Under the pieces are notes generated by a model, which saw nothing but the letters and a program-made list of their open reading frames with translations, was not told where the DNA came from and did not search any database. Of a stretch of DNA of 64,000 nucleotides, positions 3,580 to 64,000 are shown in pieces. Made by a program: the position numbers and the translations under genes. Source of the stretch: a virus; IMG/VR virus record IMGVR_UViG_3300024999_000034, positions 96,001 through 160,000 of that record; one strand, 5' to 3'. Positions within the stretch are counted from its first letter, which is position 1. Each line of letters opens with the position of its first letter.

Positions 3580-4257
3580 ATGGCAAAGAAAGCAGAAATT
3601 TTTACAAAAGAATGTAAAGAGTGTGGAACTCCTGCTATCAAAAATTCTATTATTTGTACTGAATGCGGTGCAGAACTTAAATCTTCTAAGGGAATGGGAG
3701 TAGTACAGCCAATACGCGATAAGGCAAAGATTGAAGAAATGAAAGTTTACTTAAAATCTCATTCTCTTAGAGATTATACTCTTTTTATTCTAGGTATTAA
3801 TTCTGCATTAAGAATATCTGATTTGCTTAATTTGAAAGTATCTGATGTTTATGATGAAAACGGAAAAGTGCGAGAAAGGATTTTGGTTAAAGAAATCAAA
3901 ACTAGCAAGTCTAAAAATTTCCCTTTTAATAACAGTGTGAAATCTGCTTTAAATGAATATTATCATACAATAAAACCTGCTCAGACTGTTCTATTTGCTT
4001 CTCGTAAAGGCGATGAGAGTATTACTAGGCAACAGTCACATCGTATCATTAACGAGGCAGCTAAGGCATGTAATATTAAAGAACCCTGCTCAAATCATTC
4101 CCTTAGAAAAACATTTGCCACAGCTCTGTATGAAGCAGGAGTAGATTTAACACGTATTCAAGCTCTGCTCAATCATTCTTCACCAAAAGAAACCATCCGT
4201 TATATTGGCCTCAATCAATTACAGAATGATCAGATTTATTTAAATTTAAATTTATAA
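3580..4257 (+). CDS. Small tyrosine recombinase/integrase with N-terminal double Zn ribbon
   Basis: Full catalytic set: ALRISD (R), EIKTSK (K), NHSLRKT (HxxR), LNHSS (H), IRYIG (Y); CKEC..CTEC at N-terminus. Confidence 0.92.
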   Translation: MAKKAEIFTKECKECGTPAIKNSIICTECGAELKSSKGMGVVQPIRDKAKIEEMKVYLKSHSLRDYTLFILGINSALRISDLLNLKVSDVYDENGKVRERILVKEIKTSKSKNFPFNNSVKSALNEYYHTIKPAQTVLFASRKGDESITRQQSHRIINEAAKACNIKEPCSNHSLRKTFATALYEAGVDLTRIQALLNHSSPKETIRYIGLNQLQNDQIYLNLNL

Positions 4258-4281: not shown

Positions 4282-5988
4282 ATGAAAAATAAAGAATTGA
4301 AATACAATAATGTTAAAAAGCACATTGAAAGTTTGGGATATATTTTAATTAGTACAAAATATATTAATAATTCATCTAAAATAATTATCAAAGACTCAGT
4401 CGGTTATTATTATTTAACAACTTATGGCAATTTATGTAGTAATCACATTCCTTCTAAGGCTCATAAATCAAATCCATATGCTATTCAAAATATTCAACTA
4501 TGGACTGAATTAAATAAAAAACCATTTAAACCAGTAAGTGATCAACAATATATTGTGGCAAATGATAATCTCAAATGGGAATGTTTTAAATGCGGAGAAA
4601 CATTTAAAGCTACATGGGCAAATATATCCCATGTATCTAAAAATTATGGTTGTGGATTATGTAGTGGACATCAAGTTGGATTATCAAATTGTTTAGAAAC
4701 ATTAAATCCAACTCTTGCCTCAGAGTGGCATCCTACAAAAAATGGAAGTCTCACCCCTAATGATGTGACTTGTGGATCAGGAAAATTTGTTTGGTGGGAA
4801 TGTTCTAAAAATCATAAACATGAATGGGAGGCAGATATTTACAGTAGGAATGACGGTCATGGATGTCCATATTGTAGTGGACATAGACCTAGTGAAGATT
4901 ATAATTTATTAGTAACTAACCCTATTCTTTGTAAGGAATGGCATCCTACTCTAAATGATAAAAATCCGAATGAGTATTGCCCAAGTTCTCATGAATTTGT
5001 ATGGTGGAAATGCGGTCAAGGACATGAATGGTATGCTGTAATTAGTAGTAGAAGTGGTATAAATGGTAATAATTGCCCATATTGTGCAGGACAGTTACCA
5101 ACTGAGGATAATAATTTATTGGTTGATAATCCTCATCTTTGTGAAGAGTGGTATTATGAAAAGAATGATAAAAGACCAGAGGAATATTGTCCAAATTCTA
5201 ATCAAGAAGTTTGGTGGCAATGTAAAAAAGGACATGAATGGCCTGCATTAATTTCTAATAGGAACTCTAAAGAGTCGGGATGTCCATATTGTGCAGGACA
5301 ATTGCCGAGTAAGGAAAATAATTTATTTACTAGAGACCCAGTTTTAGCATCTGAATGGCACACTACAAAAAACGGAGATTTAACTCCTTACGATGTAACT
5401 GTTAGTAGTAATAAATATGCTTGGTGGAAATGTAAAGAATGCGATCACGAATGGTATACTATGATTAATTGGAGAAGTGGTGAAAATGGTTCAGGTTGCC
5501 CCGAATGTAACAAAACTAGCACAGGTGAGATATTGATTAGTAGCGTCCTAGATTCATATAGTATACCAAATACTTCTCAATTTAGAATTGAAGAATGTAG
5601 AAATAAAAACAAACTTCCTTTTGATCATGCAGTTTTTGGAGATATCGAAAAAACAGACTTAATCTTCCTCATAGAATTTGATGGATACCACCATTTTTAC
5701 CCTGTCTGTTTCGGTGGAATTTCAGAAGAAATGGCCATTAAAACAATGAAACAAACACAATTTCATGACAAAATAAAAGATAAATACTGTCTAGACAACA
5801 ATATACATCTTCTTCGTATTAATTACAAAGATTTTGATAATATCCCAACTATTATAACTACAGAATTGCAAAAATATAATTTACTACCATGTAATTTCTT
5901 AGATTATTCAGATACATATATGAATAAACTTTTACCTGAAAATATTATTGAAATACAAAATAGCGTATCTACTCCATACACAAACTAA
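4282..5988 (+). CDS. Zn-ribbon repeat (DUF4379-type) protein with C-terminal PD-(D/E)XK/Vsr-like endonuclease; probable homing endonuclease
   Basis: About four repeats of EWHPTKN..TP..V...S....WW.C..GHEW.....R....GCPYC.G; C-terminal LPFD..LIEFDGYHH..D.IKD.YC. Confidence 0.8.
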   Translation: MKNKELKYNNVKKHIESLGYILISTKYINNSSKIIIKDSVGYYYLTTYGNLCSNHIPSKAHKSNPYAIQNIQLWTELNKKPFKPVSDQQYIVANDNLKWECFKCGETFKATWANISHVSKNYGCGLCSGHQVGLSNCLETLNPTLASEWHPTKNGSLTPNDVTCGSGKFVWWECSKNHKHEWEADIYSRNDGHGCPYCSGHRPSEDYNLLVTNPILCKEWHPTLNDKNPNEYCPSSHEFVWWKCGQGHEWYAVISSRSGINGNNCPYCAGQLPTEDNNLLVDNPHLCEEWYYEKNDKRPEEYCPNSNQEVWWQCKKGHEWPALISNRNSKESGCPYCAGQLPSKENNLFTRDPVLASEWHTTKNGDLTPYDVTVSSNKYAWWKCKECDHEWYTMINWRSGENGSGCPECNKTSTGEILISSVLDSYSIPNTSQFRIEECRNKNKLPFDHAVFGDIEKTDLIFLIEFDGYHHFYPVCFGGISEEMAIKTMKQTQFHDKIKDKYCLDNNIHLLRINYKDFDNIPTIITTELQKYNLLPCNFLDYSDTYMNKLLPENIIEIQNSVSTPYTN

Positions 5989-6004
5989 TACTAATAAATA
6001 AATT

Positions 6005-6045
6005 TTATATAACTCCTTGATTTAATACCCAAGGAGTTATATAAT
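6005..6045 (+). promoter_or_regulatory. SigA-type promoter embedded in a perfect 15-bp inverted repeat
   Basis: TTGATT(6017-22)-17 bp-TATAAT(6040-45); arms TTATATAACTCCTTG / CAAGGAGTTATATAA. Confidence 0.7.
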
Positions 6046-6093
6046 AAACCTATCATCAATCCAAAAATAAACATAGAAAGGAGCAATACATAA

Positions 6094-6495
6094 ATGCCAG
6101 TTATCTCACACGTACAAAACATAATCAATTCATTTGAAACACTACGTCGCGATATGGACACGGTTTCTAATAAAATTAAAAATTGTCATTCAGAACAAGA
6201 TGATATGTTACATGAAATAGAATTAACTAAATTCAACGCTTGTGAAGGTTATAATCTATCAAAAGAATTGCAATTGATAAGACATAAACGCAGAAAATAT
6301 CTTGAACAAGAGGAACAATTGGACATCCTAAGAGGGTTCATGAATAAATATAAATGGCTTGTCAATGAGTTGAAACCTATTGTTATAGTATTGGAAAATA
6401 AAAAGGAACAGCAAACTAACAGGAAATATACGCCAAAGATTAGGACTAATTTAAAGATTGTTAGGATACAAGGAATGAAGGAAACTGCTAAGTAA
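6094..6495 (+). CDS. Conserved phage coiled-coil hypothetical protein
   Basis: RBS AAAGGAG; DDMLHEIEL..NACEG..L..IR..RR..RKYTPK pattern. Confidence 0.7.
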   Translation: MPVISHVQNIINSFETLRRDMDTVSNKIKNCHSEQDDMLHEIELTKFNACEGYNLSKELQLIRHKRRKYLEQEEQLDILRGFMNKYKWLVNELKPIVIVLENKKEQQTNRKYTPKIRTNLKIVRIQGMKETAK

Positions 6496-51926: not shown

Positions 51927-54801
51927 GTGGTATTAATAATTATGAAAAGAGTAAATGTTACATATTTTAAACCAAGTGGGAAGTATTATACTCATGAAGA
52001 AATTGAGATTTCAAATGAACTTAGTGGTTATCATGCACTTTTTGAAGAAATACCTAAACACCATAGAATTAAAAATATGTTTATGTTGGTTCAAGATGGT
52101 GATGATAACTTAGAGCCATATATTGTTCCGCATTTATTTAGACCCTTAGAGACTTGGGAATAAAGTGTCTAATATGAAAGAGTTATTTTCTGGGAAATTA
52201 GAAAGGAGGTAAATTTAATGAAAGAATATTGGAATCGTCTTAAAATTAATGATATTAAATCTGTTTCATCAGGTGTTGGAGGTAGTTATTCATATATAGG
52301 TGGTGAAAACGAAGAGTATTTCGATGTAATAATGAAAGATGAATCTAAGCATACTTTCCATTACATAACCAAAGATAAAACAAGATATGGCAGAATAGCA
52401 AGAAAAGAATTAAAACAAATTTTAAATGAACGAGACAACGTTTCAGAAATGTATTATTTATATACTAGTGTATTTGCCAGAATTAATGGAGAGTCAATTA
52501 AAGTTGGATATGAAGTAGAAAATATCTTAGATGAATATGAAAATTTCAGCTTATTAGAAATTGATAAATTAAGAAAAGAATTTAAAATTGGTGATAAGGG
52601 TTTTAGAAGTCTAGTGTATATACATGTATTTGAAATAAAAGATAATAAAATTATGCGTCCAATTGAACAAAGATGGTTGGATCAATTAAGTAGTATGGGG
52701 TATGATATTTCAAAAATAGAATATACACTTTATGAAAAAGATATTAATTATAATTGATTTCTGGTAAAGAAAGGATAATAAATATGAAAGATAACCCTAA
52801 TTGTAAAATATGCAAATTAAAATGTTGTGGATGTCAAAGTTATGAAACTTGCTTAATGCGCAAAGGCGAAAATGGTCATAAAATAGAAGATTGTACATTC
52901 ATGGCAAGTAAATATTATTTATTTGGTGATTATTTGAGTTATGAAAAAGGTTTGAATATGAGGTTGTGTAATTACGATGAAGTGTGTAAGAGTTTGGTGG
53001 ACGCTTGGATGTAAATTAACTTATAGAAAAGGAGTAATTAAAAACATGATAAACTGTTTGTGTTTTACTTGTAAAGGATGTAATAATGAAGATTATCCTT
53101 GTGAAGATGATATAGAAGATCCATGTGGTAATTGTAGCAATGGTAGAACCATTTCATGTACTGGATATTCTGTAAAATAATAATAACTTCAAAGAACACT
53201 TCGATTGGATAAGGAGGAAATATTTAAATGAAGTATAAAGAGTGTATTCAATGCAAATGTAATACATGTGAAGATGAATATTGTAAGAATGAATCATGTA
53301 ATGAAGGTTGCAGAGATAATAAATTTAATCCAGTTTTAGGTGATTGTCATGGATATTGTACGTTAGATTCACTTATAAAGGAAGATATTCAATGAAGAAA
53401 ACATATTGTGATGCATGTGAAAAAGAAGTAAAGCATAATTATCCTTTTACTTGTTTAGTACATATCTTAGATGATGGCAAATATAGTGGTGGAGGATATG
53501 TAACCACTGATGAGGTTAATGGTAAGTGGTTGAATGTATCAGGTAGAGAAGAATCAAAGGATTTATGTTTGGAATGCTATAATAAAATTTATAGTGTTGC
53601 TTGGAAAGAGTTTTTAAATATTAAGAATCTGAATAGTAAATAAAAATGGGAGTAAAATTTAAAAGAAAAGAGGAAATAGAATGAAAAATGTTACTATTAA
53701 TAATTGTATTGATTGTTCTTCACATCAGGTATTACCAGATCCAGACCCTCATGATTGGTTTTGTGACGATGATGTTAAAGTTATATGTTCTATAGGTAAT
53801 AGAGAAATTACATGTGCGTGTAGACCATATAATATTAGAAAAGAATGTGATATTCCAAAATGGTGTTTTAAATTCAAATAATGAGGTATTTTTTGGGAAT
53901 TAGTAAAATTAAAATCGTTGCTACAGTAGGCTTTCATGGTTTGGTACTTAGTATTAAACATGTCTTTTAACGTATTTGATATTAAGGAGAGAGATAATCA
54001 TGTTAATTAGTCTAAAAGAATTACTAGACGAGATTGAAAAACAAGAAGATGATTTGTCACAAGATATAGAACTAATTAGTTTTGAAAATTATCTTCACAA
54101 ATGTTCATATTGCTATAAATGGGAGAATGGAGATTGTTTAGAGAAATCTTTGCCTAATAATTGTAGTTGGGATGGCATTATGTCCATTGCTAAAGAAGAT
54201 AAAAAGAGAGATAGAGAACAAATAATTAAATATATGGAGGAAAATAAATGAGTTGTTACGCTTTTACATGTCAATGTTTCTATTGCTCAAGAGTACAATA
54301 TGGTTGCAAAAGGGACACGCCTAATAAATGTGCTGAACATAATTGTGGCTTAGACATCATTTGCTCACAACCATTGCCAGATAATTATTATATTAATCAA
54401 TGTAAAAGATTTGGAAAAGCTGAATATGATGTAGGAGCTTGTATTGATTGTAGTGTAGAAAACAAGAATTTGTTTTATGTTTGTAGAGATATTATGAGAA
54501 ATTTGAAAGAAAAGAAAGTTAGAAAGGACAATTAATCATGAAACAAGTGTATCAATGTGATTTTTGCACAATATTACTTCCAAAAGAAGAAATGGAAATT
54601 CATGAAAAAATATGCGATTACAATGTTGTAAATAAAACTTGTTTAACTTGTAAAAATGCCAGAATGAGGGATGGAAGATTACAATATTGTAGAATTGGTG
54701 TTCAAATGAATGTTCAACATGGAGTTATCATTAGAATTTATCCTATTATTGGTTGTGATAAGTGGGAATTTGGAGAACCTAATGATATGAGGAGTGTGTG
54801 A
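51927..54801 (+). other. Run of small ORFs, many strongly Cys-rich
   Basis: 52754, 53046, 53344, 53681, 54248 and 54538 carry multiple CxxC. Confidence 0.6.
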
Positions 54802-54851: not shown

Positions 54852-54927
54852 ATGACATAATGACATAATAATGTAATATTAATGTCACAGCAATGAAATT
54901 GACTATATTAGTCGAATATTGTATCAT
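54852..54927 (+). promoter_or_regulatory. Promoter with TGACAT repeats (putative operator) upstream of mazF
   Basis: ATGACATA x2 (54852, 54860), inverted ATGTCA (54882); TTGACT(54899)-17-TATCAT(54922). Confidence 0.55.
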
Positions 54928-55062: not shown

Positions 55063-55446
55063 ATGTTGCAACAACAATTTAATCGGGGAGAGATATGGTT
55101 AGTTGATCTTCCATTTACAGGTAATTCAATTCAAGGTGGAGGCATTAGGCCAGTTGTGTTGTGTAGTAATAATATGGCAAATCTACATAGTCCAATTTTA
55201 CATTATGTTCCTCTTACAACTCGTAAGAAACCATCCCTCCCTACTCACACAGAAATTGACACAGATAGCGGAATAATTAGAAAATCTACTGTACTATGTG
55301 AACAAGTTATGCCATTACCAAAAACGGCTTTCAAAGAATGTATAGGATTCTGCAATGAAAAAGTAATGGATAAGGTTGATTTTTGTCTAGCTGTGCATTT
55401 AGGTTTGGTTAAACTTGTGAATAGAAATAATGTTGCTTATGGTTAA
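55063..55446 (+). CDS. mazF: MazF/PemK endoribonuclease, no recognisable MazE
   Basis: RGEIWLVDL..QGGGIRPVV..N..VPLTT..LPTH..CEQV; catalytic Arg and Thr present. Confidence 0.9.
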   Translation: MLQQQFNRGEIWLVDLPFTGNSIQGGGIRPVVLCSNNMANLHSPILHYVPLTTRKKPSLPTHTEIDTDSGIIRKSTVLCEQVMPLPKTAFKECIGFCNEKVMDKVDFCLAVHLGLVKLVNRNNVAYG

Positions 55447-55475: not shown

Positions 55476-57080
55476 TTGGGTAAAAATAAAACTACAGAGC
55501 AGTATAGACAAGAGTTAGAAGAATATAATTTAAAATATAATACAAAAATAAAGTTAAAGAATGGAGTTGAATATAATGGTGCTAATACTAAAATATTACA
55601 TATTTGTTCGTGTGGTAAAGAGTGGTTAGTTTCACCTTCAGGCGTTATAAATAGTAGTTCGAAAACAAGTTGTGGTTTATGTTATACGTTTGCAGAAAAA
55701 GGAATCGATAATCTAGGGTATAATTTTTTAGAAAAATATTGGGATTATAAAACAAATAACGAATTAGGAATTGATCCTTGGAAAATTAGTTGTAGTTCTG
55801 GAAAAGATGTTTATATATTTTGCCAAGAGAAAGATTATCATGGAAGTTATAAAGTACGTTGTGTTGATTTTAGTAATGGAAGTAGGTGTGGTTATTGTCA
55901 AGGATACTATTTGGTTCATCCTTTAGATAGTTACGGACAGTATTTAATTGATTCATTTGGAATAACCGCAATAGAACTGTATTGGGATTATAATATAAAC
56001 ACTGTTGATCCTTGGAAGATTACAAAACAATCAAATAAGATGGTATATATTAAATGTCAGAGGAAATATTATCATGGAAGTTATGGCATCAAGTGTAATG
56101 ATTTTGTAAGAGGTGATAGATGCGGATATTGTGGAGGTAAAAAAGTACATCCATTGGACAGTCTAGGAACACTACATCCAAAATCACTAGAATTATGGTC
56201 AAATATAAACAAAAAATCACCATATGAATATATGTCTGGAAGCGATATGGAAGTTTGGTTTAAATGTGGCAACAAGAGACATGAAGATTACCAAAAAAGA
56301 ATATATAATGCAGTAAATTGTAATTTTAGATGTCCAGTATGTTCTCAAGAGCAAAAAGAATCTGTCATGGCCTCCACACTAAAGCAGGTATTAAGATATG
56401 AATACAGTCATACAAAATGGGAATATGACGCAGGATTTAAAATAGATAATAATATTAGTAGGTATGATATTTATGTTCCAGAATTGAATAACTTATTAAT
56501 AGAATGCCAAAGTGAATATCACGATGATGAAAAACATATTATTAACGATCAACTTAAAAAACAGTTTGCTATTGATAATGGATATGAATTTATAGCAATA
56601 GATAAAAGAGATTTTACAATAATAGAAATACTGAAATTTTTTATACCACATATAGATAAAATCCCTGATTATATACAAATAAATAAAAATACAACAAGAA
56701 GCTGGGACATAGAAAACGCTCAAAAACTACTAGATACTGGTCATACATACATAGATATAGCCAATATATTAGAAACGTCAGCTACAGCAATACGTGCAAG
56801 TGTAGGCGATAATGGTTTAATTAAACCAAATAATTATATTTTCCAAGGTGCAAATATAGTTTGTTTATCTATGGATAATAATTTAATAAAAACATATAAT
56901 TCATGTACTTCTGCTGCCAAAGATTTAGGAAAAGCAAATGGAACAAGTATTAGTTCATGTTTGACTAAAAAGCCTCGTTCAGATACTGGGAAAATACGTG
57001 AAACAGCTTTTGGTTTTAAATGGATGTATCTAGTAGATTATGAGAATATGGTCAAAGATCAAAATAATAAACCTCCGTAG
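55476..57080 (+). CDS. Zn-ribbon repeat (DUF4379-like) endonuclease with C-terminal NUMOD1-like domain (TTG start)
   Basis: YWDY..N..DPW..CQ..YHGSY..RCGYC repeats; YDIYVP..IECQSEYH; KTYNS..AAKDLG..ISSCL..TAFGFKW. Confidence 0.75.
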   Translation: MGKNKTTEQYRQELEEYNLKYNTKIKLKNGVEYNGANTKILHICSCGKEWLVSPSGVINSSSKTSCGLCYTFAEKGIDNLGYNFLEKYWDYKTNNELGIDPWKISCSSGKDVYIFCQEKDYHGSYKVRCVDFSNGSRCGYCQGYYLVHPLDSYGQYLIDSFGITAIELYWDYNINTVDPWKITKQSNKMVYIKCQRKYYHGSYGIKCNDFVRGDRCGYCGGKKVHPLDSLGTLHPKSLELWSNINKKSPYEYMSGSDMEVWFKCGNKRHEDYQKRIYNAVNCNFRCPVCSQEQKESVMASTLKQVLRYEYSHTKWEYDAGFKIDNNISRYDIYVPELNNLLIECQSEYHDDEKHIINDQLKKQFAIDNGYEFIAIDKRDFTIIEILKFFIPHIDKIPDYIQINKNTTRSWDIENAQKLLDTGHTYIDIANILETSATAIRASVGDNGLIKPNNYIFQGANIVCLSMDNNLIKTYNSCTSAAKDLGKANGTSISSCLTKKPRSDTGKIRETAFGFKWMYLVDYENMVKDQNNKPP

Positions 57081-57135: not shown

Positions 57136-57834
57136 ATGGATTTAATCACACTAGCAACAAAAACGACATACAAATTATTCAAAGTAGATGAAGTAATTGA
57201 CTCATTTGATCAAAAACACTTTAATATTGTTAAGATAATAGTAAAAAAATATAGGAATATGGACATTGAAGCAACAAAATCTCAAGTACAACAATTAGCC
57301 GAAAACGGAATTAGGAATTTTTGGAGTGAGTTATTTAAGTATATAATTGTATTATCAATTGCAAGTTATTTTAATATATTTACTCCAACTTTCTTTGTAA
57401 TGAATGCTTTCTCTGTCCTCAGAGCATTGGCTGGTGGCGTACATATGTCTACCATAGGAAAATGCTTTGCAATGATGGTTCTATTCTTCTTATCACTAGG
57501 ATATTTAATTAGTATATTACATATAAATACGTTAGTATTAGTCGTAGGAATATCATTGGGGTCTATATGGAGCATATACATAGCTAAAAAATATTCTCCA
57601 CAGGAAAGACCAGATAAATCAGATAAAGATTGTGATCACGGCAATATAAAAAAGTATAAGACAATAAAGTTTATTAAATTCTCGTATATAATTAGTATGA
57701 TATTAATATTGTTTACTCAAAAATACATAATTGGGATTAGTATATTTACAGGTGTTTTACTTGAGATGGTAACAATTACACCTAGAGGAACGAGATTTTT
57801 TCAATGGATAGATAGTAAGAAGGTGACACTATGA
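57136..57834 (+). CDS. agrB: AgrB-family peptide-cyclising membrane protease
   Basis: LRALAGGVHMSTIGKC (catalytic His and Cys), YSP..RP, multiple TM helices. Confidence 0.9.
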   Translation: MDLITLATKTTYKLFKVDEVIDSFDQKHFNIVKIIVKKYRNMDIEATKSQVQQLAENGIRNFWSELFKYIIVLSIASYFNIFTPTFFVMNAFSVLRALAGGVHMSTIGKCFAMMVLFFLSLGYLISILHINTLVLVVGISLGSIWSIYIAKKYSPQERPDKSDKDCDHGNIKKYKTIKFIKFSYIISMILILFTQKYIIGISIFTGVLLEMVTITPRGTRFFQWIDSKKVTL

Positions 57835-58457
57835 TCGAAGTGGTAGTGTTTACATTCGTTTTTGCATGGTTCAATGGTTATAAGTGGAAGGTATTAAATT
57901 TGTTTAAGCATTGGAGCATATACCCCATTGCACTTACTTGTGTTGCTCATATTTATATTATATATCTTATGGTTCATGGTCAATATTGGTTTATGGAATA
58001 TGCCAAATACATAAAAATTGTATCTATATTACTTTACTTAGGTTTGATTTGTAAATATAAGTTATTCGACATATCTATCTTTAAGAAAATTAATATTAAA
58101 GAGAACCCTATATTAACCCCTTTTACATCTCCTGTTTCTTTAGGTGTATTATGCATGGGTATAGGATCTGTCTTAAATATTATTGCTATGAAATTTAATG
58201 GTTCAAAAATGCCTGTTTTTGCGAGTGTAAGTTTTGGTACAGGATATTCAAAAATAGATATGTTTGATAAAATGTTACAGTATAATGACTTTCATGTATT
58301 TGGAAACAGTGCTACACATTTGATATTTTTAACCGATTTCATAGATATTTTTACATCCATTATGAGTATCGGTGATGTATTAACTAGAATATTTGTTGTT
58401 TTAGTAATATATTACTCAATAAAAGTATGTAATCATAAAGTAATAAATAATATTTAG
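57831..58457 (+). CDS. DUF5317-like multi-pass membrane protein
   Basis: G..LN..A..NG.KMPV..H......L..L.D.I..SIGD pattern; overlaps agrB stop. Confidence 0.7.
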   Translation: MIEVVVFTFVFAWFNGYKWKVLNLFKHWSIYPIALTCVAHIYIIYLMVHGQYWFMEYAKYIKIVSILLYLGLICKYKLFDISIFKKINIKENPILTPFTSPVSLGVLCMGIGSVLNIIAMKFNGSKMPVFASVSFGTGYSKIDMFDKMLQYNDFHVFGNSATHLIFLTDFIDIFTSIMSIGDVLTRIFVVLVIYYSIKVCNHKVINNI

Positions 58458-58525: not shown

Positions 58526-59314
58526 ATGTTGGAAAATATCATTTATTGTGCGTTGAGTTGTATTTTTATCACGATCCCAGAAGACATTTTTCTAATAATA
58601 TTAACGCTAAGATTTATGGGAAGAAAAGAGATGTTGGATTTATACAATATTAAAGAAAATTTAATTTCGATTTTAAAAATTGTTATCCCTTCGGCATTGT
58701 CTTTAAATCTTTTAAATTTTATAATAATGACACCAACTTCAATTAACAAAATAATATCTTATACTATGTTGTATTTGTTATTGGTATACATATTAAAAAA
58801 GAAATCTTTTATTGAATATCCAAAATTATATCAAAAAGCTTTTCTATATTTTATCTTAAGTATATTAGTAATAATAGCTATTGAAATTATTACCTTGCCA
58901 ATTATATTTAAATTAGTTAATAAAACATATAAAGAAATTCAGGTAAATTATTATTTAGTCATAATATGTTCTCTGTCTTCTAGAATTATAAATCTAATAA
59001 TATTGTTCACTATTTTTATGAAGAAGAATAGTAAATTTCAAATAAGTATTGGTAATTATATATTTAATAATAAATTTTTCACAAGATTATTGATTGGTGT
59101 CACGGCAGGATTGGTTGTATCTGAGGCATACTTTGTCAAGTTAATTTTGTGGAATAACTTTTTAAATATCATTCCAACAATTTACGAACAATTGTTGTTA
59201 GTTATAAGTTTTACTTTTTTAGTACCAAGTTTGATAATTTCAATAGTTTATTCTTGTATAAATTATTGTGTTATGATTATTAATAGTGAGAAGCAGACTT
59301 TCAGAAATGACTGA
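58526..59314 (+). CDS. Multi-pass membrane protein resembling an AgrC/VirS sensor domain, without a kinase domain
   Basis: About 7 hydrophobic segments; between agrB and agrD; paralog of 60533; no H-box or HATPase motifs. Confidence 0.6.
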   Translation: MLENIIYCALSCIFITIPEDIFLIILTLRFMGRKEMLDLYNIKENLISILKIVIPSALSLNLLNFIIMTPTSINKIISYTMLYLLLVYILKKKSFIEYPKLYQKAFLYFILSILVIIAIEIITLPIIFKLVNKTYKEIQVNYYLVIICSLSSRIINLIILFTIFMKKNSKFQISIGNYIFNNKFFTRLLIGVTAGLVVSEAYFVKLILWNNFLNIIPTIYEQLLLVISFTFLVPSLIISIVYSCINYCVMIINSEKQTFRND

Positions 59315-59353: not shown

Positions 59354-59461
59354 ATGAAAAAGAATATCGTAATTGGTTTTGTAGCAATCGCTGCTTTTGC
59401 AGCAGTAATGTCTTCAATGGTAGTTTGGCATCAATCGGAAACTCCTAGTTGTATCGCGTAG
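59354..59461 (+). CDS. agrD: AgrD-like cyclic-lactone autoinducer propeptide (missed by ORF track)
   Basis: MKKNIVIGFVAIAAFAAVMSSMVVWHQSETPSCIA; RBS AAGGAGGTG; HQ.E.P tail typical of clostridial AgrD. Confidence 0.82.
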   Translation: MKKNIVIGFVAIAAFAAVMSSMVVWHQSETPSCIA

Positions 59462-59477
59462 TACATATCCATGATCT

Positions 59478-59507
59478 AAGGAGGGAGTATTTATACTCTC
59501 TCCTTTT
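59478..59507 (+). terminator. Intrinsic terminator after agrD
   Basis: AAGGAGGGAGTAT-tt-ATACTCTCTCCTT followed by TT. Confidence 0.7.
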
Positions 59508-59535
59508 GAATTATAAAATAATTTTTATAATACTA

Positions 59536-59565
59536 TTGACATATTATCCACTGTTGTAGTATAGT
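59536..59565 (+). promoter_or_regulatory. SigA promoter for the HTH-MazF gene
   Basis: TTGACA-18 bp-TATAGT. Confidence 0.65.
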
Positions 59566-59617: not shown

Positions 59618-60439
59618 ATGATTAATATGTTTTTCAATACAAAAAAGAGAAATGAGACTGTTAAATCAAATGAGGCAAAGGATTTCAAGAAGCTTGCAAA
59701 CTTAGTAAAAATAGCCGTTGGAAGCAATACTATTTCAGAGTTTGCAAACAGATGTGGTATTCCAAATTCAGCTAAAAGTATTGCTATGATTACTCAAGAA
59801 AAAATAACTACATACCCAGAAGTCGGTTTGCTTAAAAAAATTGCTTTGGGTTCTGAATTTCGAGTATCTTTTAATGATTTAAGGATTGCATGTGGTTATG
59901 ATTTAAATGATACAGGGATTGATCTTAGAGGTGTAAAAGCTATGAGGGGTTGGATTGCCTTATGTAACTATGGGAACGTTTTAGACTCAGAACAATCTGG
60001 AATTAGGCCTTCCTTAATAATTTCCAATAATATTGGGAATGAGAGAGGGACTATTTTGATGGCAATTCCTTTATCTAGTAAAATAATGAAAAATACTATG
60101 CCGACCCACGTCAGAATTGGCCCCAAAGACTGCGGATTGGCACAAGAGTCAGAAATTTTAGTTGAGCAGATGCGTGTAGTATCAAAAAGTCGTTTAATGA
60201 TTGATGGGTTCATTCAACCAATTTGTGAATGTCCTGAAGACATACTCCGTAAGGTAGAAATAGCCATCATGAAGGAAACTGGTATGGTGAATACTAGAGC
60301 CAATGAATCTACAGTAGATAGATTCCTTGATAAACTTAATGAATATGTAAATAAAGCAGAAGAAAGTCGTATCAATCACATTCAAAGCAATAATCGCAAC
60401 ACAATTCCACAACAACAGAGAGTAGCATCTTTTGCATGA
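59618..60439 (+). CDS. XRE-type HTH fused to a MazF/PemK domain
   Basis: N-terminal TISEFANRCGI..YPEVGLLKKIA..LRIACGY; C-terminal RG..SEQSGIRPS..SNNIGN..AIPLSS..PTHV..L..ES.IL.EQMR. Confidence 0.85.
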   Translation: MINMFFNTKKRNETVKSNEAKDFKKLANLVKIAVGSNTISEFANRCGIPNSAKSIAMITQEKITTYPEVGLLKKIALGSEFRVSFNDLRIACGYDLNDTGIDLRGVKAMRGWIALCNYGNVLDSEQSGIRPSLIISNNIGNERGTILMAIPLSSKIMKNTMPTHVRIGPKDCGLAQESEILVEQMRVVSKSRLMIDGFIQPICECPEDILRKVEIAIMKETGMVNTRANESTVDRFLDKLNEYVNKAEESRINHIQSNNRNTIPQQQRVASFA

Positions 60440-60444
60440 ATATA

Positions 60445-60497
60445 ATATAAATGGTCATTATATGTCCTTCTTATTATAATATAATGACCATTTATAT
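60445..60497. promoter_or_regulatory. Perfect 19-bp inverted repeat containing a possible promoter (or terminator)
   Basis: ATATAAATGGTCATTATAT-15 nt-ATATAATGACCATTTATAT; TGGTCA(60452)-17-TATAAT(60475). Confidence 0.65.
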
Positions 60498-60532: not shown

Positions 60533-61333
60533 ATGCAAGCAATTACAAATGCCATCCTAAACACCATATTCGTTGGCCTCCCTGAAGAAATGTTCATTGT
60601 AATAATCACATTATCACTTCTAAAAATCAATGATCTGCTAGACATCTTAATGTGGAAACGTAGTCTAACATGGATTATGCTCACAGCATTACCCGTAGCA
60701 ATAATGGCAAATATCTTCAAATATATTATCATAGTACCAAAACAAAATTCTATATTGTCAATTATGTTATTTATGATAATTCTTATGCAATACATAGTCA
60801 TCACCAATAGTTTCAAAGTAAATTTTTCACTAATATTTAAAACAGCAATCTACACAATCGCAAGCTTTGTAATTGTAGGAATCATTGAATATGCTTACTG
60901 TCCACTTCTATTAGCATTATTAGAAAAACCATATAGTTTTTTCAATGATAATGTAATGTACAATATCCTATGGGCTATTCCAATCAAAATTCTACACTTA
61001 TGTATTGTTTCCTTAATTCTAGTGAGAAAAAATAGCAAAGTAAAAATTAATCTGTTTGACTCAATTATTAGAAATAAATTTATTGTTAGTGGTTTGTTGC
61101 TAATATTAGCAACCAGAGCATTAGTAGTTAATTATATCAATAAATTAGTGGAAAATAATAGCATCATGATTCAATTACAATTTATTGATGAATTAATTGC
61201 TATTGTTATAATCACATCAATTCCAGTAATATTTGTCACATGGTTATTAATGGTAATCAATCATTATTTATGTAAAGAGAAAATGGCTCTGTTGGTTTGT
61301 GAAGGAGTTAGTGGAAATGATGACGGTGAGTGA
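60533..61333 (+). CDS. Second AgrC-sensor-like membrane protein, kinase-less paralog of 58526
   Basis: IFVGLPEEMFIVIITL vs IFITIPEDIFLIILTL; shared K(I/F)Q/N(L/I)...I.N.F linker. Confidence 0.6.
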   Translation: MQAITNAILNTIFVGLPEEMFIVIITLSLLKINDLLDILMWKRSLTWIMLTALPVAIMANIFKYIIIVPKQNSILSIMLFMIILMQYIVITNSFKVNFSLIFKTAIYTIASFVIVGIIEYAYCPLLLALLEKPYSFFNDNVMYNILWAIPIKILHLCIVSLILVRKNSKVKINLFDSIIRNKFIVSGLLLILATRALVVNYINKLVENNSIMIQLQFIDELIAIVIITSIPVIFVTWLLMVINHYLCKEKMALLVCEGVSGNDDGE

Positions 61334-61515: not shown

Positions 61516-61869
61516 ATGAATTTAGAAACTAACAACGAGGAATATTTATGGGTAATCAAAGATCAAGATGGTAACTTTGCTCACAGAAACAGTATTGGCA
61601 AGTCTGGTAAGAATACCTGCATATACATATCTTTTAGAACATTCTCTCCTGAGTGCAAGGGTTATATAAGTAAAGAAAGTGCTGAATTAGCCTTGCAAGA
61701 ATTAAACAGAAGAAAATCTATCATGAGATTACCAAATACATTCAATTTAGAATATAATATTTTAAGTAAGATGACTAAACTACATAGGGAATTTCAAGGA
61801 GAGAATATGGTCATATATGAAAAAACACATTCAAATATATTAAACTGTCCTGTATTAGAAGCAATCTAG
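61516..61869 (+). CDS. Hypothetical protein
   Basis: RBS AAAGGAG; own promoter and downstream hairpin. Confidence 0.65.
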   Translation: MNLETNNEEYLWVIKDQDGNFAHRNSIGKSGKNTCIYISFRTFSPECKGYISKESAELALQELNRRKSIMRLPNTFNLEYNILSKMTKLHREFQGENMVIYEKTHSNILNCPVLEAI

Positions 61870-61955: not shown

Positions 61956-61984
61956 TTGACATTAGAGTAATAATTAGATATACT
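61956..61984 (+). promoter_or_regulatory. Consensus SigA promoter for the repressor operon
   Basis: TTGACA-17 bp-TATACT. Confidence 0.8.
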
Positions 61985-62022
61985 GATATTAATATTATTT
62001 TAATGTGAAGGAGAGATATTTA

Positions 62023-63390
62023 ATGCTTAAAGAAAAATCAGTTGAGTTAATGCAAGAATTAAATCCATTGATCGTTAAATATTCTAGTAATGACAAGGTA
62101 AGAAAAATAATTTTAAATGAGTTTTCCAAAAGGAATATGAGTGGTCGGTTGGCACTATCTATTTTAAACGAGAAAAGAGTATTATCAACATTAGATATCG
62201 ATGAAGGGAAAGACTTGATATTATTATTTGTTTTTACTAGTGCAATGTACAATGCATTGACATTTAAAGAAGCAGATGATAAAGAACCTTTGGGAGAAAT
62301 AGAAGAGTCATTTAAAATAACTCTCGAAAACTATTTTACTGAAATTGAGATTGAAAGTCTATTAAACCACACATTTGAAAAAAAAGTTGATGAAAAAGAT
62401 GAGGCTATTGTTTTTCCAAAAATGAATTTGATTGCTCCTGGATTTTATTCTGGGTATATGTCTGGAAAACATTTTGCTGAATTAGATGCTGGAAATGAAT
62501 TCATCTATAATTTTAAAACCCAGCGTGATCCAATTATTAATGTATCTGGAATGAAAGAAATACATTTAAATAAGAAAAACGCAAAAGAAATTAGAGATGG
62601 TTTGCTTTCAGGCGATCAATTCCCAACTACTATAGTGGTAAATGTTCTTCGAGATGGATCAGACGAAATAATCTACAACGAAAAAAATGGAGACTTGACT
62701 ATTGTTTCAGGAACTAAAAACCTTGTTGACGGAATGCATAGAAAAGTGGGTAATAGCTTAGCCCTTGCTCTTAATCCAGATTTGCAATTTAATTGGTTGT
62801 TAGTTGTGATAAACTATAGCGAGGTTAGAGCGCAAAAATATATGGTTGAAATTAACAAGCAACAAAAAATGAAGCAGGAACATGTTGATAACATGGATAC
62901 TTCTAATCTTGGAAACATTGTTGTAGACAACATTAAAGATATTGACAACGCTGAATTCTCTGGGCATATTAAAGACAGCGATAAAGAACTAGAACATGGT
63001 GGTATGGTAAAAAAATCAACATTAGCAACTAGTATAGAAGAGTGTTACAAGGATAAACTAACTAATAAAATTGAAGCAAAAAAGATAGCAAAGCATATTG
63101 CTAATGTTGTAGATTATGTTATAGGATTACACGCAGAAGAGTTTATAGAGCATTCTGAAGCTACTAAGAAAGAAAGTTATATCAATCATAAGAATATGTT
63201 TGCAGGATATGTTGCCTTATCTGAAAGATTATATGAAGTAAAGGATTGGGAAGATTTATTAGAAGAAATTCTTAATCAAATTGATTTTAGTGTTAAAAAT
63301 TCTTTCTGGAAAGATATTGGAATATCAGATTCAGATATGAAAAAGTCTACCAGAAACAATTTATATAAATTCTTTCAGAAATTAGTTTAA
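62023..63390 (+). CDS. yopQ: SPbeta YopQ/SroE-like repressor (DndB/ParB-like DGQHR-type fold)
   Basis: NFKTQR..LVDGMHR..INKQ motifs; size about 460 aa; directly upstream of a YopR-like gene. Confidence 0.65.
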   Translation: MLKEKSVELMQELNPLIVKYSSNDKVRKIILNEFSKRNMSGRLALSILNEKRVLSTLDIDEGKDLILLFVFTSAMYNALTFKEADDKEPLGEIEESFKITLENYFTEIEIESLLNHTFEKKVDEKDEAIVFPKMNLIAPGFYSGYMSGKHFAELDAGNEFIYNFKTQRDPIINVSGMKEIHLNKKNAKEIRDGLLSGDQFPTTIVVNVLRDGSDEIIYNEKNGDLTIVSGTKNLVDGMHRKVGNSLALALNPDLQFNWLLVVINYSEVRAQKYMVEINKQQKMKQEHVDNMDTSNLGNIVVDNIKDIDNAEFSGHIKDSDKELEHGGMVKKSTLATSIEECYKDKLTNKIEAKKIAKHIANVVDYVIGLHAEEFIEHSEATKKESYINHKNMFAGYVALSERLYEVKDWEDLLEEILNQIDFSVKNSFWKDIGISDSDMKKSTRNNLYKFFQKLV

Positions 63391-63424: not shown

Positions 63425-64000
63425 TTGGTTATTAATGAAGTTAATAATGGGTTGCAAAATGAAGAGGTGGTATTTGAGGTTGATTCAGAAGTGAAAAAGG
63501 AATTTCTAGAAAAACAATTAAAGTCAACTAGAAGTTTCTACACTTATGTTCTCAAAAGAGCAGATGAATTTGAATCACAACTTGGGAAAAAGATTTACGA
63601 TTTTAATATTGAAGATCGCGATGAGATGTTGACTGTTCAGTTTAAGAATAAGAATAAATGGACGTTTCAATCTGCATTATCTCCTTTAAAAACTTATGTT
63701 GACTTCTGTATTTCTAAGAATTTAGTTAGACACAATGAAAACAGGTTTATGACTATTCTTCCGTCAGATTATGATGATTATGTTAGTGATCAAGCAAAAA
63801 ACAGTTCTTATATCCCTTTATCAGAATCCAGAGAATTTCAAAAAAGATTAGCAAATGATCAAGATAAATTAATCATTGAATTATCTAGTTTAGGGGTTAG
63901 GGGAAGAACTGAAAAAGGCAATACACTTGAAGAGTTTGTAAATCTCAAAGTAAAAGATATTAAGTGGAAAGATAAGGAATTATGGCTCACTAAAAACAAT
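63425..64000 (+). CDS. yopR: SPbeta YopR/MrpR/SroF-like integrase-fold repressor (5' part, runs off window; TTG start)
   Basis: Manual translation: KKEFLE..FESQLGKKIYDFNIE..YVDFCI..NDQDKLIIEL..GVRG..LEEFVNLKVKDI. Confidence 0.75.
   Translation, partial: MVINEVNNGLQNEEVVFEVDSEVKKEFLEKQLKSTRSFYTYVLKRADEFESQLGKKIYDFNIEDRDEMLTVQFKNKNKWTFQSALSPLKTYVDFCISKNLVRHNENRFMTILPSDYDDYVSDQAKNSSYIPLSESREFQKRLANDQDKLIIELSSLGVRGRTEKGNTLEEFVNLKVKDIKWKDKELWLTKNN

Follow-up and report, generated by a model that had tools for sequence, protein, structure and literature searches.

A phage-encoded HTH-MazF fusion as a possible cytoplasmic output of a kinase-less Agr-type module upstream of SPbeta-type repressor genes

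A MazF toxin ordinarily has a labile MazE antitoxin as its partner and no DNA-binding domain of its own. In other toxin families, toxin and antitoxin can be fused in a single chain, as in CapRel(SJ46) and EzeT. In a comparative survey of type II systems, the partners of MazF were found to belong to the AbrB, RHH and other families, and no fusion of MazF to a helix-turn-helix (HTH) domain was included (PMC2701414). In the arbitrium phage phi3T, the RNase activity of host MazF promotes lysogeny, and the phage proteins AimX and YosL block MazF under arbitrium control (PMC10769878). Peptide-signaling genes of the agr type are carried by the Clostridium difficile phage phiCDHM1 (PMC3901668), and MrpR has been described as the master repressor of SPbeta (PMC10516654). 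Full-text literature searches turned up neither a description of an HTH-MazF fusion nor one of a MazF within a phage agr locus.

The window considered here, i.e., the whole 64,000-nucleotide stretch of DNA that was analyzed, comprises bases 96001-160000 of the 180,838-bp IMG/VR record IMGVR_UViG_3300024999_000034, which has a GC content of 29% and is estimated to be 85% complete. Genes between 1 and 46 kb form a minus-strand block, and nearly all of the remainder, including the cassette genes listed next, are encoded on the plus strand. At the head of the cassette is a short MazF paralogue (127 aa; 55063-55446) that has no antitoxin gene. The AgrB peptidase gene (57136-57834; PF04647, E 2.8e-24) is followed by a gene for a DUF5317 membrane protein (57831-58457), which overlaps the agrB stop codon, by the gene for a 262-aa seven-helix membrane protein, here termed A (58526-59314), and by an agrD-like gene encoding a 35-aa peptide (59354-59461). 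Directly downstream of agrD lies the gene of interest, whose three-part product consists of an N-terminal HTH domain, a MazF domain and a C-terminal extension. It is succeeded by the gene for a 266-aa paralogue of membrane protein A (membrane protein B; 60533-61333), a DndB-like gene of the YopQ/SroE type (62005-63390) with its own strong promoter (61956-61984), and a repressor gene resembling mrpR (YopR/SroF) that begins at 63425 and continues beyond the window end (64000) to 64471. Judged from gene order, the HTH-MazF protein is the likeliest cytoplasmic output of this module, because the record contains neither an AgrC kinase nor AgrA and the order of membrane protein, AgrD and HTH-MazF genes is kept among relatives. 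That it actually serves as the output of a kinase-less Agr-type module, upstream of SPbeta-type repressor genes, is the reading favored here, albeit tentatively.

The main argument for assigning the gene to a signaling module is that this triad survives both rearrangement and divergence to approximately 25% identity. Full-length relatives of the HTH-MazF protein form 37 clusters at 55-100% identity, all of metagenomic origin and several on contigs of 150-175 kb, and an exhaustive HMMER search added more distant proteins (193-304 aa; 24-41% identity) that possess the N-terminal domain, the MazF domain and, usually, a longer C-terminus. Twenty-two of these distant proteins, all with the HTH-MazF architecture, were used for an alignment of the wide family. 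No host or prophage copy was found in GTDB species representatives. Cassette order is identical in all nine close loci, namely short MazF, an optional insert resembling a homing endonuclease, AgrB, DUF5317, membrane protein A, AgrD and HTH-MazF, followed by membrane protein B and a 117-aa ORF (both variable), the DndB-like gene and the MrpR-like gene. In five distant loci (L011, L013, L014, L015, and L016), a gene for an AgrD-like peptide is situated immediately 5' of the HTH-MazF homologue and is preceded, wherever the DNA extends far enough, by a gene for a membrane-protein homologue of 250-279 aa. The distant peptides share a Cys or Ser plus four residues followed by (H/N/Y)-Q-P-(K/E)-x-P; that of L014, encoded by an uncalled 38-aa gene (5960-6249; ring SFLYF, then YQPKTP) between the membrane-protein gene and the HTH-MazF homologue, was found by translation. 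AgrB follows HTH-MazF in L011, L014 and L015, and DndB and MrpR do so in L014. The triad is therefore kept despite rearrangement in relatives down to ~25-44% identity, and across the nine close and five distant loci AgrB is encoded nearby, usually together with SPbeta-type repressor genes (DndB/YopQ-like and MrpR/YopR-like).

Of the parts of an agr system, both an AgrB peptidase and an AgrD propeptide are encoded in the window. The AgrD assignment lies close to the threshold of its model (TIGR04223, 19.1 bits against a cut-off of 19), and 14 loci share the pattern of ring and tail; in the window copy a Ser-lactone ring, SMVVW, followed by HQSETP, is predicted. Searches of the record for the AgrC and AgrA domains HATPase_c, HATPase_c_5 and LytTR gave no match, to be read with its estimated completeness of 85%. 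Membrane protein A, modeled by AF2 with a pLDDT of 83 as seven long helices, belongs to a phage-only family whose members are all ~260 aa and come from one phage group. None of the solved structures stands out as a relative (best Foldseek E 2.4; VIA Z <8), and its Atlas matches are limited to unnamed clusters, so that it may be called AgrC-like only by analogy. The protein varies with peptide type. The ring residue of AgrD is Ser in six of the close loci and Cys in three (L007, L009, and L010), and it is in exactly these three that the identity of membrane protein A to the window copy falls to 36%, against 53-61% elsewhere; HTH-MazF itself remains 63-67% identical there. Such co-variation fits a receptor-ligand pair, as it would shared ancestry. 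The hypervariability of peptide and membrane protein resembles that of agr specificity groups.

The HTH-MazF gene was listed as an ORF of 273 aa (59618-60439). The likely start is, however, the second ATG at 59627, giving a product of 270 aa, because the ATG at 59618 lies too near the ribosome binding site, whereas AAGGGTGGA and a further 9 nt precede the second. The RBS is placed 9 nt 5' of this ATG in AAGGGTGGATGATTAATATG, and both RBS and spacing are kept in relatives. Upstream, the membrane-protein/agrD transcription unit ends in an intrinsic terminator (59478-59510; hairpin of -17.4 kcal/mol, z -4.2, then UUUUG), which is followed by a sigma-A-type promoter, TTGACA-18-TATAGT (59536-59565), matching 11 of the 12 consensus positions. 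Two further 11/12 matches in 10 kb are located directly 5' of membrane protein A and of the DndB-like gene. The case for a promoter of its own rests on conservation, because the consensus scan overall was no richer than shuffled sequence (75 sites vs. 72): all nine related loci retain the terminator, the promoter and the leader, and the -35 region, CTATTGACATATTA, ranks among the most conserved intergenic words. RNAalifold detected no conserved RNA structure in the 5' leader, and a 12-bp inverted repeat found there is perfect in L006 only. Neither the 165-nt gap upstream nor the 93-nt gap downstream contains an ORF, and no match to the RHH_1 or AbrB/MazE-type (MazE_antitoxin) families was found anywhere in the 180-kb record. 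The adjacent, co-transcribed MazE/PemI partner of AbrB or RHH type that defines a type II MazEF system was accordingly not found, and a terminator and separate promoter lie 5' of the gene. The initial annotation, which had described an HTH-MazF gene directly downstream of agrD with its own promoter and no antitoxin, thus holds on all these points, the order being the same in the window and in relatives.

These features are also what would be expected of a self-contained toxin, either lacking an antitoxin or neutralized in cis, with the HTH domain or the C-terminal extension serving as a fused antitoxin-like part. Such a toxin might act in addiction to a prophage or plasmid, in superinfection exclusion or in early host shut-off, and its linkage to agr would be positional rather than functional. 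MazF-like proteins are frequent in phages, where they count as host-takeover morons (phrog_1936; 55 phage records), PemK-like proteins of greater length (206-266 aa) are present in other phages, and the cassette contains a second solitary MazF; HTH-MazF, moreover, has a strong promoter of its own and is separated from agrD by a terminator, and no antitoxin gene accompanies it. Against this, the peptide and membrane-protein genes stay immediately 5' of HTH-MazF throughout the divergence described above, even where AgrB has moved downstream. There was likewise no match to any PADLOC defense family, and no stand-alone homologue of the N-terminal domain hints at a split toxin-antitoxin ancestor, none having been found among shorter proteins or in GenBank phages in either stand-alone or split form. 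A toxin of this kind is considered unlikely.

The N-terminal domain (residues 16-93, of which 18-93 correspond to 59678-59905) had been described as XRE-like, an assignment borne out by structure only. No HTH family (HTH_3 and related) was matched in Pfam or NCBIfam at E-values up to 0.1 by the window protein or 22 distant relatives, and an Atlas feature score of 0.87 for HTH_3 provides only a weak lead. The AF2 model contains five helices here, within residues 20-89, at a pLDDT of ~80-90. In an exhaustive structural comparison its best matches were the Rhodococcus XRE regulator 2ofy (Z 8.9, 73 residues aligned), C.AhdI (1y7y; Z 8.9, rmsd 2.1, 64 aligned), and SinR (1b0n; Z 8.6, rmsd 1.7, 61 aligned), with ImmR, the 434 and P22 repressors, ComR and HipB also in the Z 7-8.9 range and CapH and HigA among the further matches. 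A single Z of ~8 is not decisive for a small helical domain, but the consistency of the list is, ranks 12-50 of the top 50, below the MazF/CcdB entries, being almost all XRE-type HTH domains. On the strength of the model, the domain is of the XRE/Cro type, a five-helix, lambda-repressor-like fold. Its basic character (pI 9.3) points to putative DNA binding. It is the most conserved domain in the close family, with a mean pairwise identity of 68% compared with 62% for MazF, and it occurs in no deposited phage. In BFVD, viral models match the MazF domain alone (query TM <=0.42), and none was found that has both domains over the full length.

The PemK/MazF domain reported initially is identified with confidence by Pfam PemK_toxin (PF02452; E 5e-21, 75.4 bits against a cut-off of 23.1, residues 107-215), and a Firmicute-type MazF/EndoA domain spans residues 104-220, of which 106-220 correspond to 59942-60286. 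Comparison of the family profile with the PDB retrieved Bacillus anthracis MoxT, B. subtilis EndoA and Staphylococcus aureus MazF, all at ~1e-23, and the model reproduces the SH3-like barrel of the solved toxins (Foldseek target TM 0.92, rmsd 1.7 Å for 4hke/4mdx; VIA Z 16.0-16.2 over 113-115 residues). The short MazF is a paralogue with 33% identity. In the HMM alignment to MoxT and EndoA, the Arg of the GIRP motif (Arg127; codon 60005-60007), proposed earlier to be catalytic, corresponds to Arg25 in B. subtilis numbering, and the first Ser of PLSS (Ser150; codon 60074-60076), as likewise proposed, to Thr48. Equivalents of Glu20, Pro26, Asn36, Glu78-Gln79 and Lys85 are also retained, and Gly18 of UACAU-type MazFs is replaced by Asp. 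Mutagenesis and the structure of EndoA bound to RNA have shown several of the retained positions to be important (PMC8634880), and the active site of the window copy appears, from its sequence, to be competent.

The same cannot be assumed for every relative. Within the close family there are three active-site classes, RGW..DSEQxGxRP (the window copy), WGG..DSIQGGIRP and WGG..DSVTGGxHP; two close subclades have thus replaced Glu20 with Ile or Val, and in one of them Gln21 and Arg25 have also become Thr and His, respectively. In L009 and L010 the RNA-binding/catalytic motif is altered (fusion residues ~107-130), the protein being otherwise kept, HTH included. The classes do not follow peptide type, and C-terminal tails look to have been swapped between them. 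At the level of the wide family, every one of 23 relatives (24-41% identity) has Arg at the position of Arg127. Because Glu20 is gone from two subclades, and Arg25 as well from one of these, some members of the family may lack RNase activity, and there may be a conserved function that does not need catalysis. The ancestral protein may have been an active RNase whose catalysis was relaxed or retuned in some lineages, with the HTH and scaffold still under constraint.

These replacements bear on the proposal that the protein is primarily a transcription factor, its MazF domain forming a non-catalytic scaffold for dimerization or partner binding with vestigial RNase chemistry, for example as a decoy that titrates host MazE or by binding a small phage protein. 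Greater conservation of the HTH, the two subclades in which Glu20 and in one case Gln21 and Arg25 are replaced and the rest kept, and the Asp at the Gly18 position would all suit such a protein, yet the window copy retains the equivalents listed above, the Arg is invariant in the wide family, and His is itself still capable of acid-base catalysis, so that the subclades need not be inactive; this explanation is considered unlikely. A MazE-titrating pseudo-toxin, one of two roles suggested by the initial annotation, accordingly fits the window copy less well, all key residues being kept there, and is open for the subclades in which Glu20 and Arg25 have been replaced.

Beyond the MazF fold, the AF2 model of the fusion (mean pLDDT 75.5) contains a 32-residue helix (residues 227-258) and then a disordered tail, which together make up the C-terminal extension (60287-60436). 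With regard to a fused single-chain toxin-antitoxin, the pTM of the model, 0.52, leaves the arrangement of the domains uncertain. A MazE-like identity of the C-terminal helix was considered and rejected, no PDB sequence match to MazE being obtained. The tail is hydrophobic and conserved as Q-R-(V/E)-A-(S/V)-(F/L)-A, and reads QRVASFA in the window (60416-60436). Among relatives of the fusion, a terminal [YFLC]-A, extended by no more than one residue, is found in 20 of the 37 close and 8 of the 22 distant proteins; among other MazF representatives the count is 6 of 127. In eight loci, the short MazF paralogue terminates in N-N-(V/I/M)-A-Y-A(-N), whereas the window copy ends in NNVAYG (55426-55443). 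Such ends resemble the last residues of the B. subtilis SsrA tag (..NVALAA), and the tails of both paralogues could be degradation tags of the SsrA kind or motifs for docking, which is offered as a lead only. tRNA and tmRNA genes, sought in the whole record for comparison with the HTH-MazF tails, were not found.

Approximately 3 kb 3' of HTH-MazF, the product of 63425-64471 matches the N-terminal domain of MrpR (MrpR_N_CB, E 3.6e-13). MrpR-like proteins are known in large Firmicute phages, including Geobacillus phage E3, the Tsamsa group and a C. botulinum type C phage. The record has a single clear Phage_integrase match, a genuine but small (225 aa) tyrosine recombinase with an N-terminal zinc ribbon (3580-4257), and no match to a large serine recombinase domain. 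The MrpR and DndB homologues and this recombinase are the grounds on which we infer that the phage is temperate.

Other genes in and around the cassette vary. The 117-aa ORF (61516-61869), located 3' of the membrane protein B gene and 5' of the DndB-like gene, belongs to no recognized family and is conserved at 39-50% in L003, L005, L008 and L010; the remaining four close loci lack it. Treble-clef zinc fingers (DUF4379) and NUMOD1 are present in a protein of 534 aa, resembling a homing endonuclease, that is encoded at 55476-57080. The gene is inserted between the short MazF gene and agrB in the window and in L006, is represented by two ORFs in L005, and is absent from L003, L004, L009 and L010. 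Just 5' of the cassette there is a series of small, very Cys-rich ORFs with many CxxC pairs (52754-54801), one of which (54538-54801) is conserved at 79-83% in L005 and L009.

Two repeats, at 54852-54887 and 60445-60497, had been put forward as candidate operators for the HTH domain, and only the second is a real feature. This repeat, 3' of the HTH-MazF gene and assigned to neither strand, has perfect arms of 19 bp (-21.7 kcal/mol, z -6.8) and no U-run. Of the nine close loci, the five with a membrane protein B gene are the only ones in which the arms are kept, and the loop between the arms varies from ~15 to 45 nt among loci. Because arm spacing is variable, the repeat would be better explained as a hairpin, or as an element moving together with the gene for membrane protein B, than as an operator for a dimeric HTH protein, which would have fixed spacing. 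At 54852-54887 there is a short direct repeat whose inverted ends measure 6 bp; it is at chance level (z -1.5; 19 of 200 shuffles fold as well) and is not conserved. No word or palindrome recurs among the cassette promoters as a shared operator would, the conserved intergenic words corresponding to ribosome binding sites, the terminator after agrD, the promoter of HTH-MazF and the repeat downstream of it. Cleavage sites were equally uninformative: UACAU, which is the B. subtilis/S. aureus MazF site and may not be the specificity of HTH-MazF, is neither depleted nor enriched in the repressor genes or on sense strands genome-wide (263 observed against 242 expected from synonymous-codon shuffles), and no depletion was evident at the level of single genes (0 observed and 0.55 expected in the MrpR-like gene).

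The scheme favored here is one in which AgrB, AgrD, the phage-specific seven-helix membrane protein and HTH-MazF would constitute a single module. The MazF domain would dimerize, as all MazFs do, and in so doing present two HTH domains to DNA, the targets being its own promoter and/or the repressor operon, while also cleaving RNA at UAC-type sites. By this activity the phage-borne MazF would take the role that host MazF plays in phi3T and tilt infection towards lysogeny; the statement in the initial annotation that MazF steers lysogeny in arbitrium phages is indeed found in the literature for phi3T (PMC10769878). Activity would be gated by the peptide-sensing membrane protein rather than by a MazE partner, and/or be limited in cis by the C-terminal extension, with the tail acting as a degradation tag. 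The coupling of peptide sensing to the repressors that had been suggested initially is strongly supported as guilt by association, namely by a triad kept beside DndB/MrpR-type genes and accompanied by no kinase, and is to that extent sustained. The further step, a second phage communication system distinct from arbitrium, in which a cyclic AgrD-type peptide acts via a kinase-less seven-helix membrane protein on a phage-encoded, DNA-tethered MazF RNase to set the choice between lysis and lysogeny at an SPbeta-type repressor locus and a C-terminal degradation tag replaces the antitoxin, is regarded as somewhat doubtful.

The locus merits attention for the combination that it presents, a partner-less phage MazF fused to an HTH domain, which gene order ties to a peptide-signal gene and a candidate receptor beside SPbeta-type master-repressor genes. 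Should HTH-MazF prove to be the output of an Agr-like module, it would represent a second and mechanistically different phage communication system, a kinase-free transduction of an Agr peptide signal, and an example of toxin domestication without an antitoxin.

Of the described proteins, the closest to the MazF domain are B. subtilis EndoA (NdoA, YdcE), B. anthracis MoxT and S. aureus MazF (4MDX, 1NE8, 4HKE, and 4MZM), with which it has a common fold and ~30-33% domain identity, as well as the SEQxGxRP, NxxGN, PTH and EQxRxxxKxRL motifs, Arg25 and a hydroxyl at the Thr48 position. Unlike these toxins, the fusion has an additional ~100 aa of XRE fold at the N-terminus and ~50 aa at the C-terminus, has Asp in place of Gly18, is not accompanied by a MazE gene, and is phage-borne within an agr-type cassette. 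With CapRel(SJ46) and EzeT it has in common a toxin domain without a separate antitoxin gene, and extra domains that possibly neutralize in cis; those systems belong to other toxin families, however, and the extra domain of the window protein is a DNA-binding fold for which cis-neutralization is only possible. The arbitrium-MazF circuit of phi3T likewise brings together a peptide signal, a MazF RNase and relatives of SPbeta-type YopQ/YopR in a lysis-lysogeny locus (PMC10769878). In phi3T, AimR-AimP and AimX/YosL act on host MazEF, whereas the MazF of the window is phage-encoded and fused to an HTH, the comparison drawing here on genes alone; no MazE-like AimX or YosL was detected in the record. 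The peptide, too, is different, being predicted to be an AgrD-type cyclic (thio)lactone processed by AgrB and not a linear AimP. The AgrB-AgrD-AgrC-AgrA systems of staphylococci and clostridia share with the locus AgrB (PF04647), an AgrD-like propeptide, a five-residue ring and a QP.xP tail, but where they employ a histidine kinase and a LytTR regulator, the window instead encodes a kinase-less seven-helix protein and HTH-MazF.
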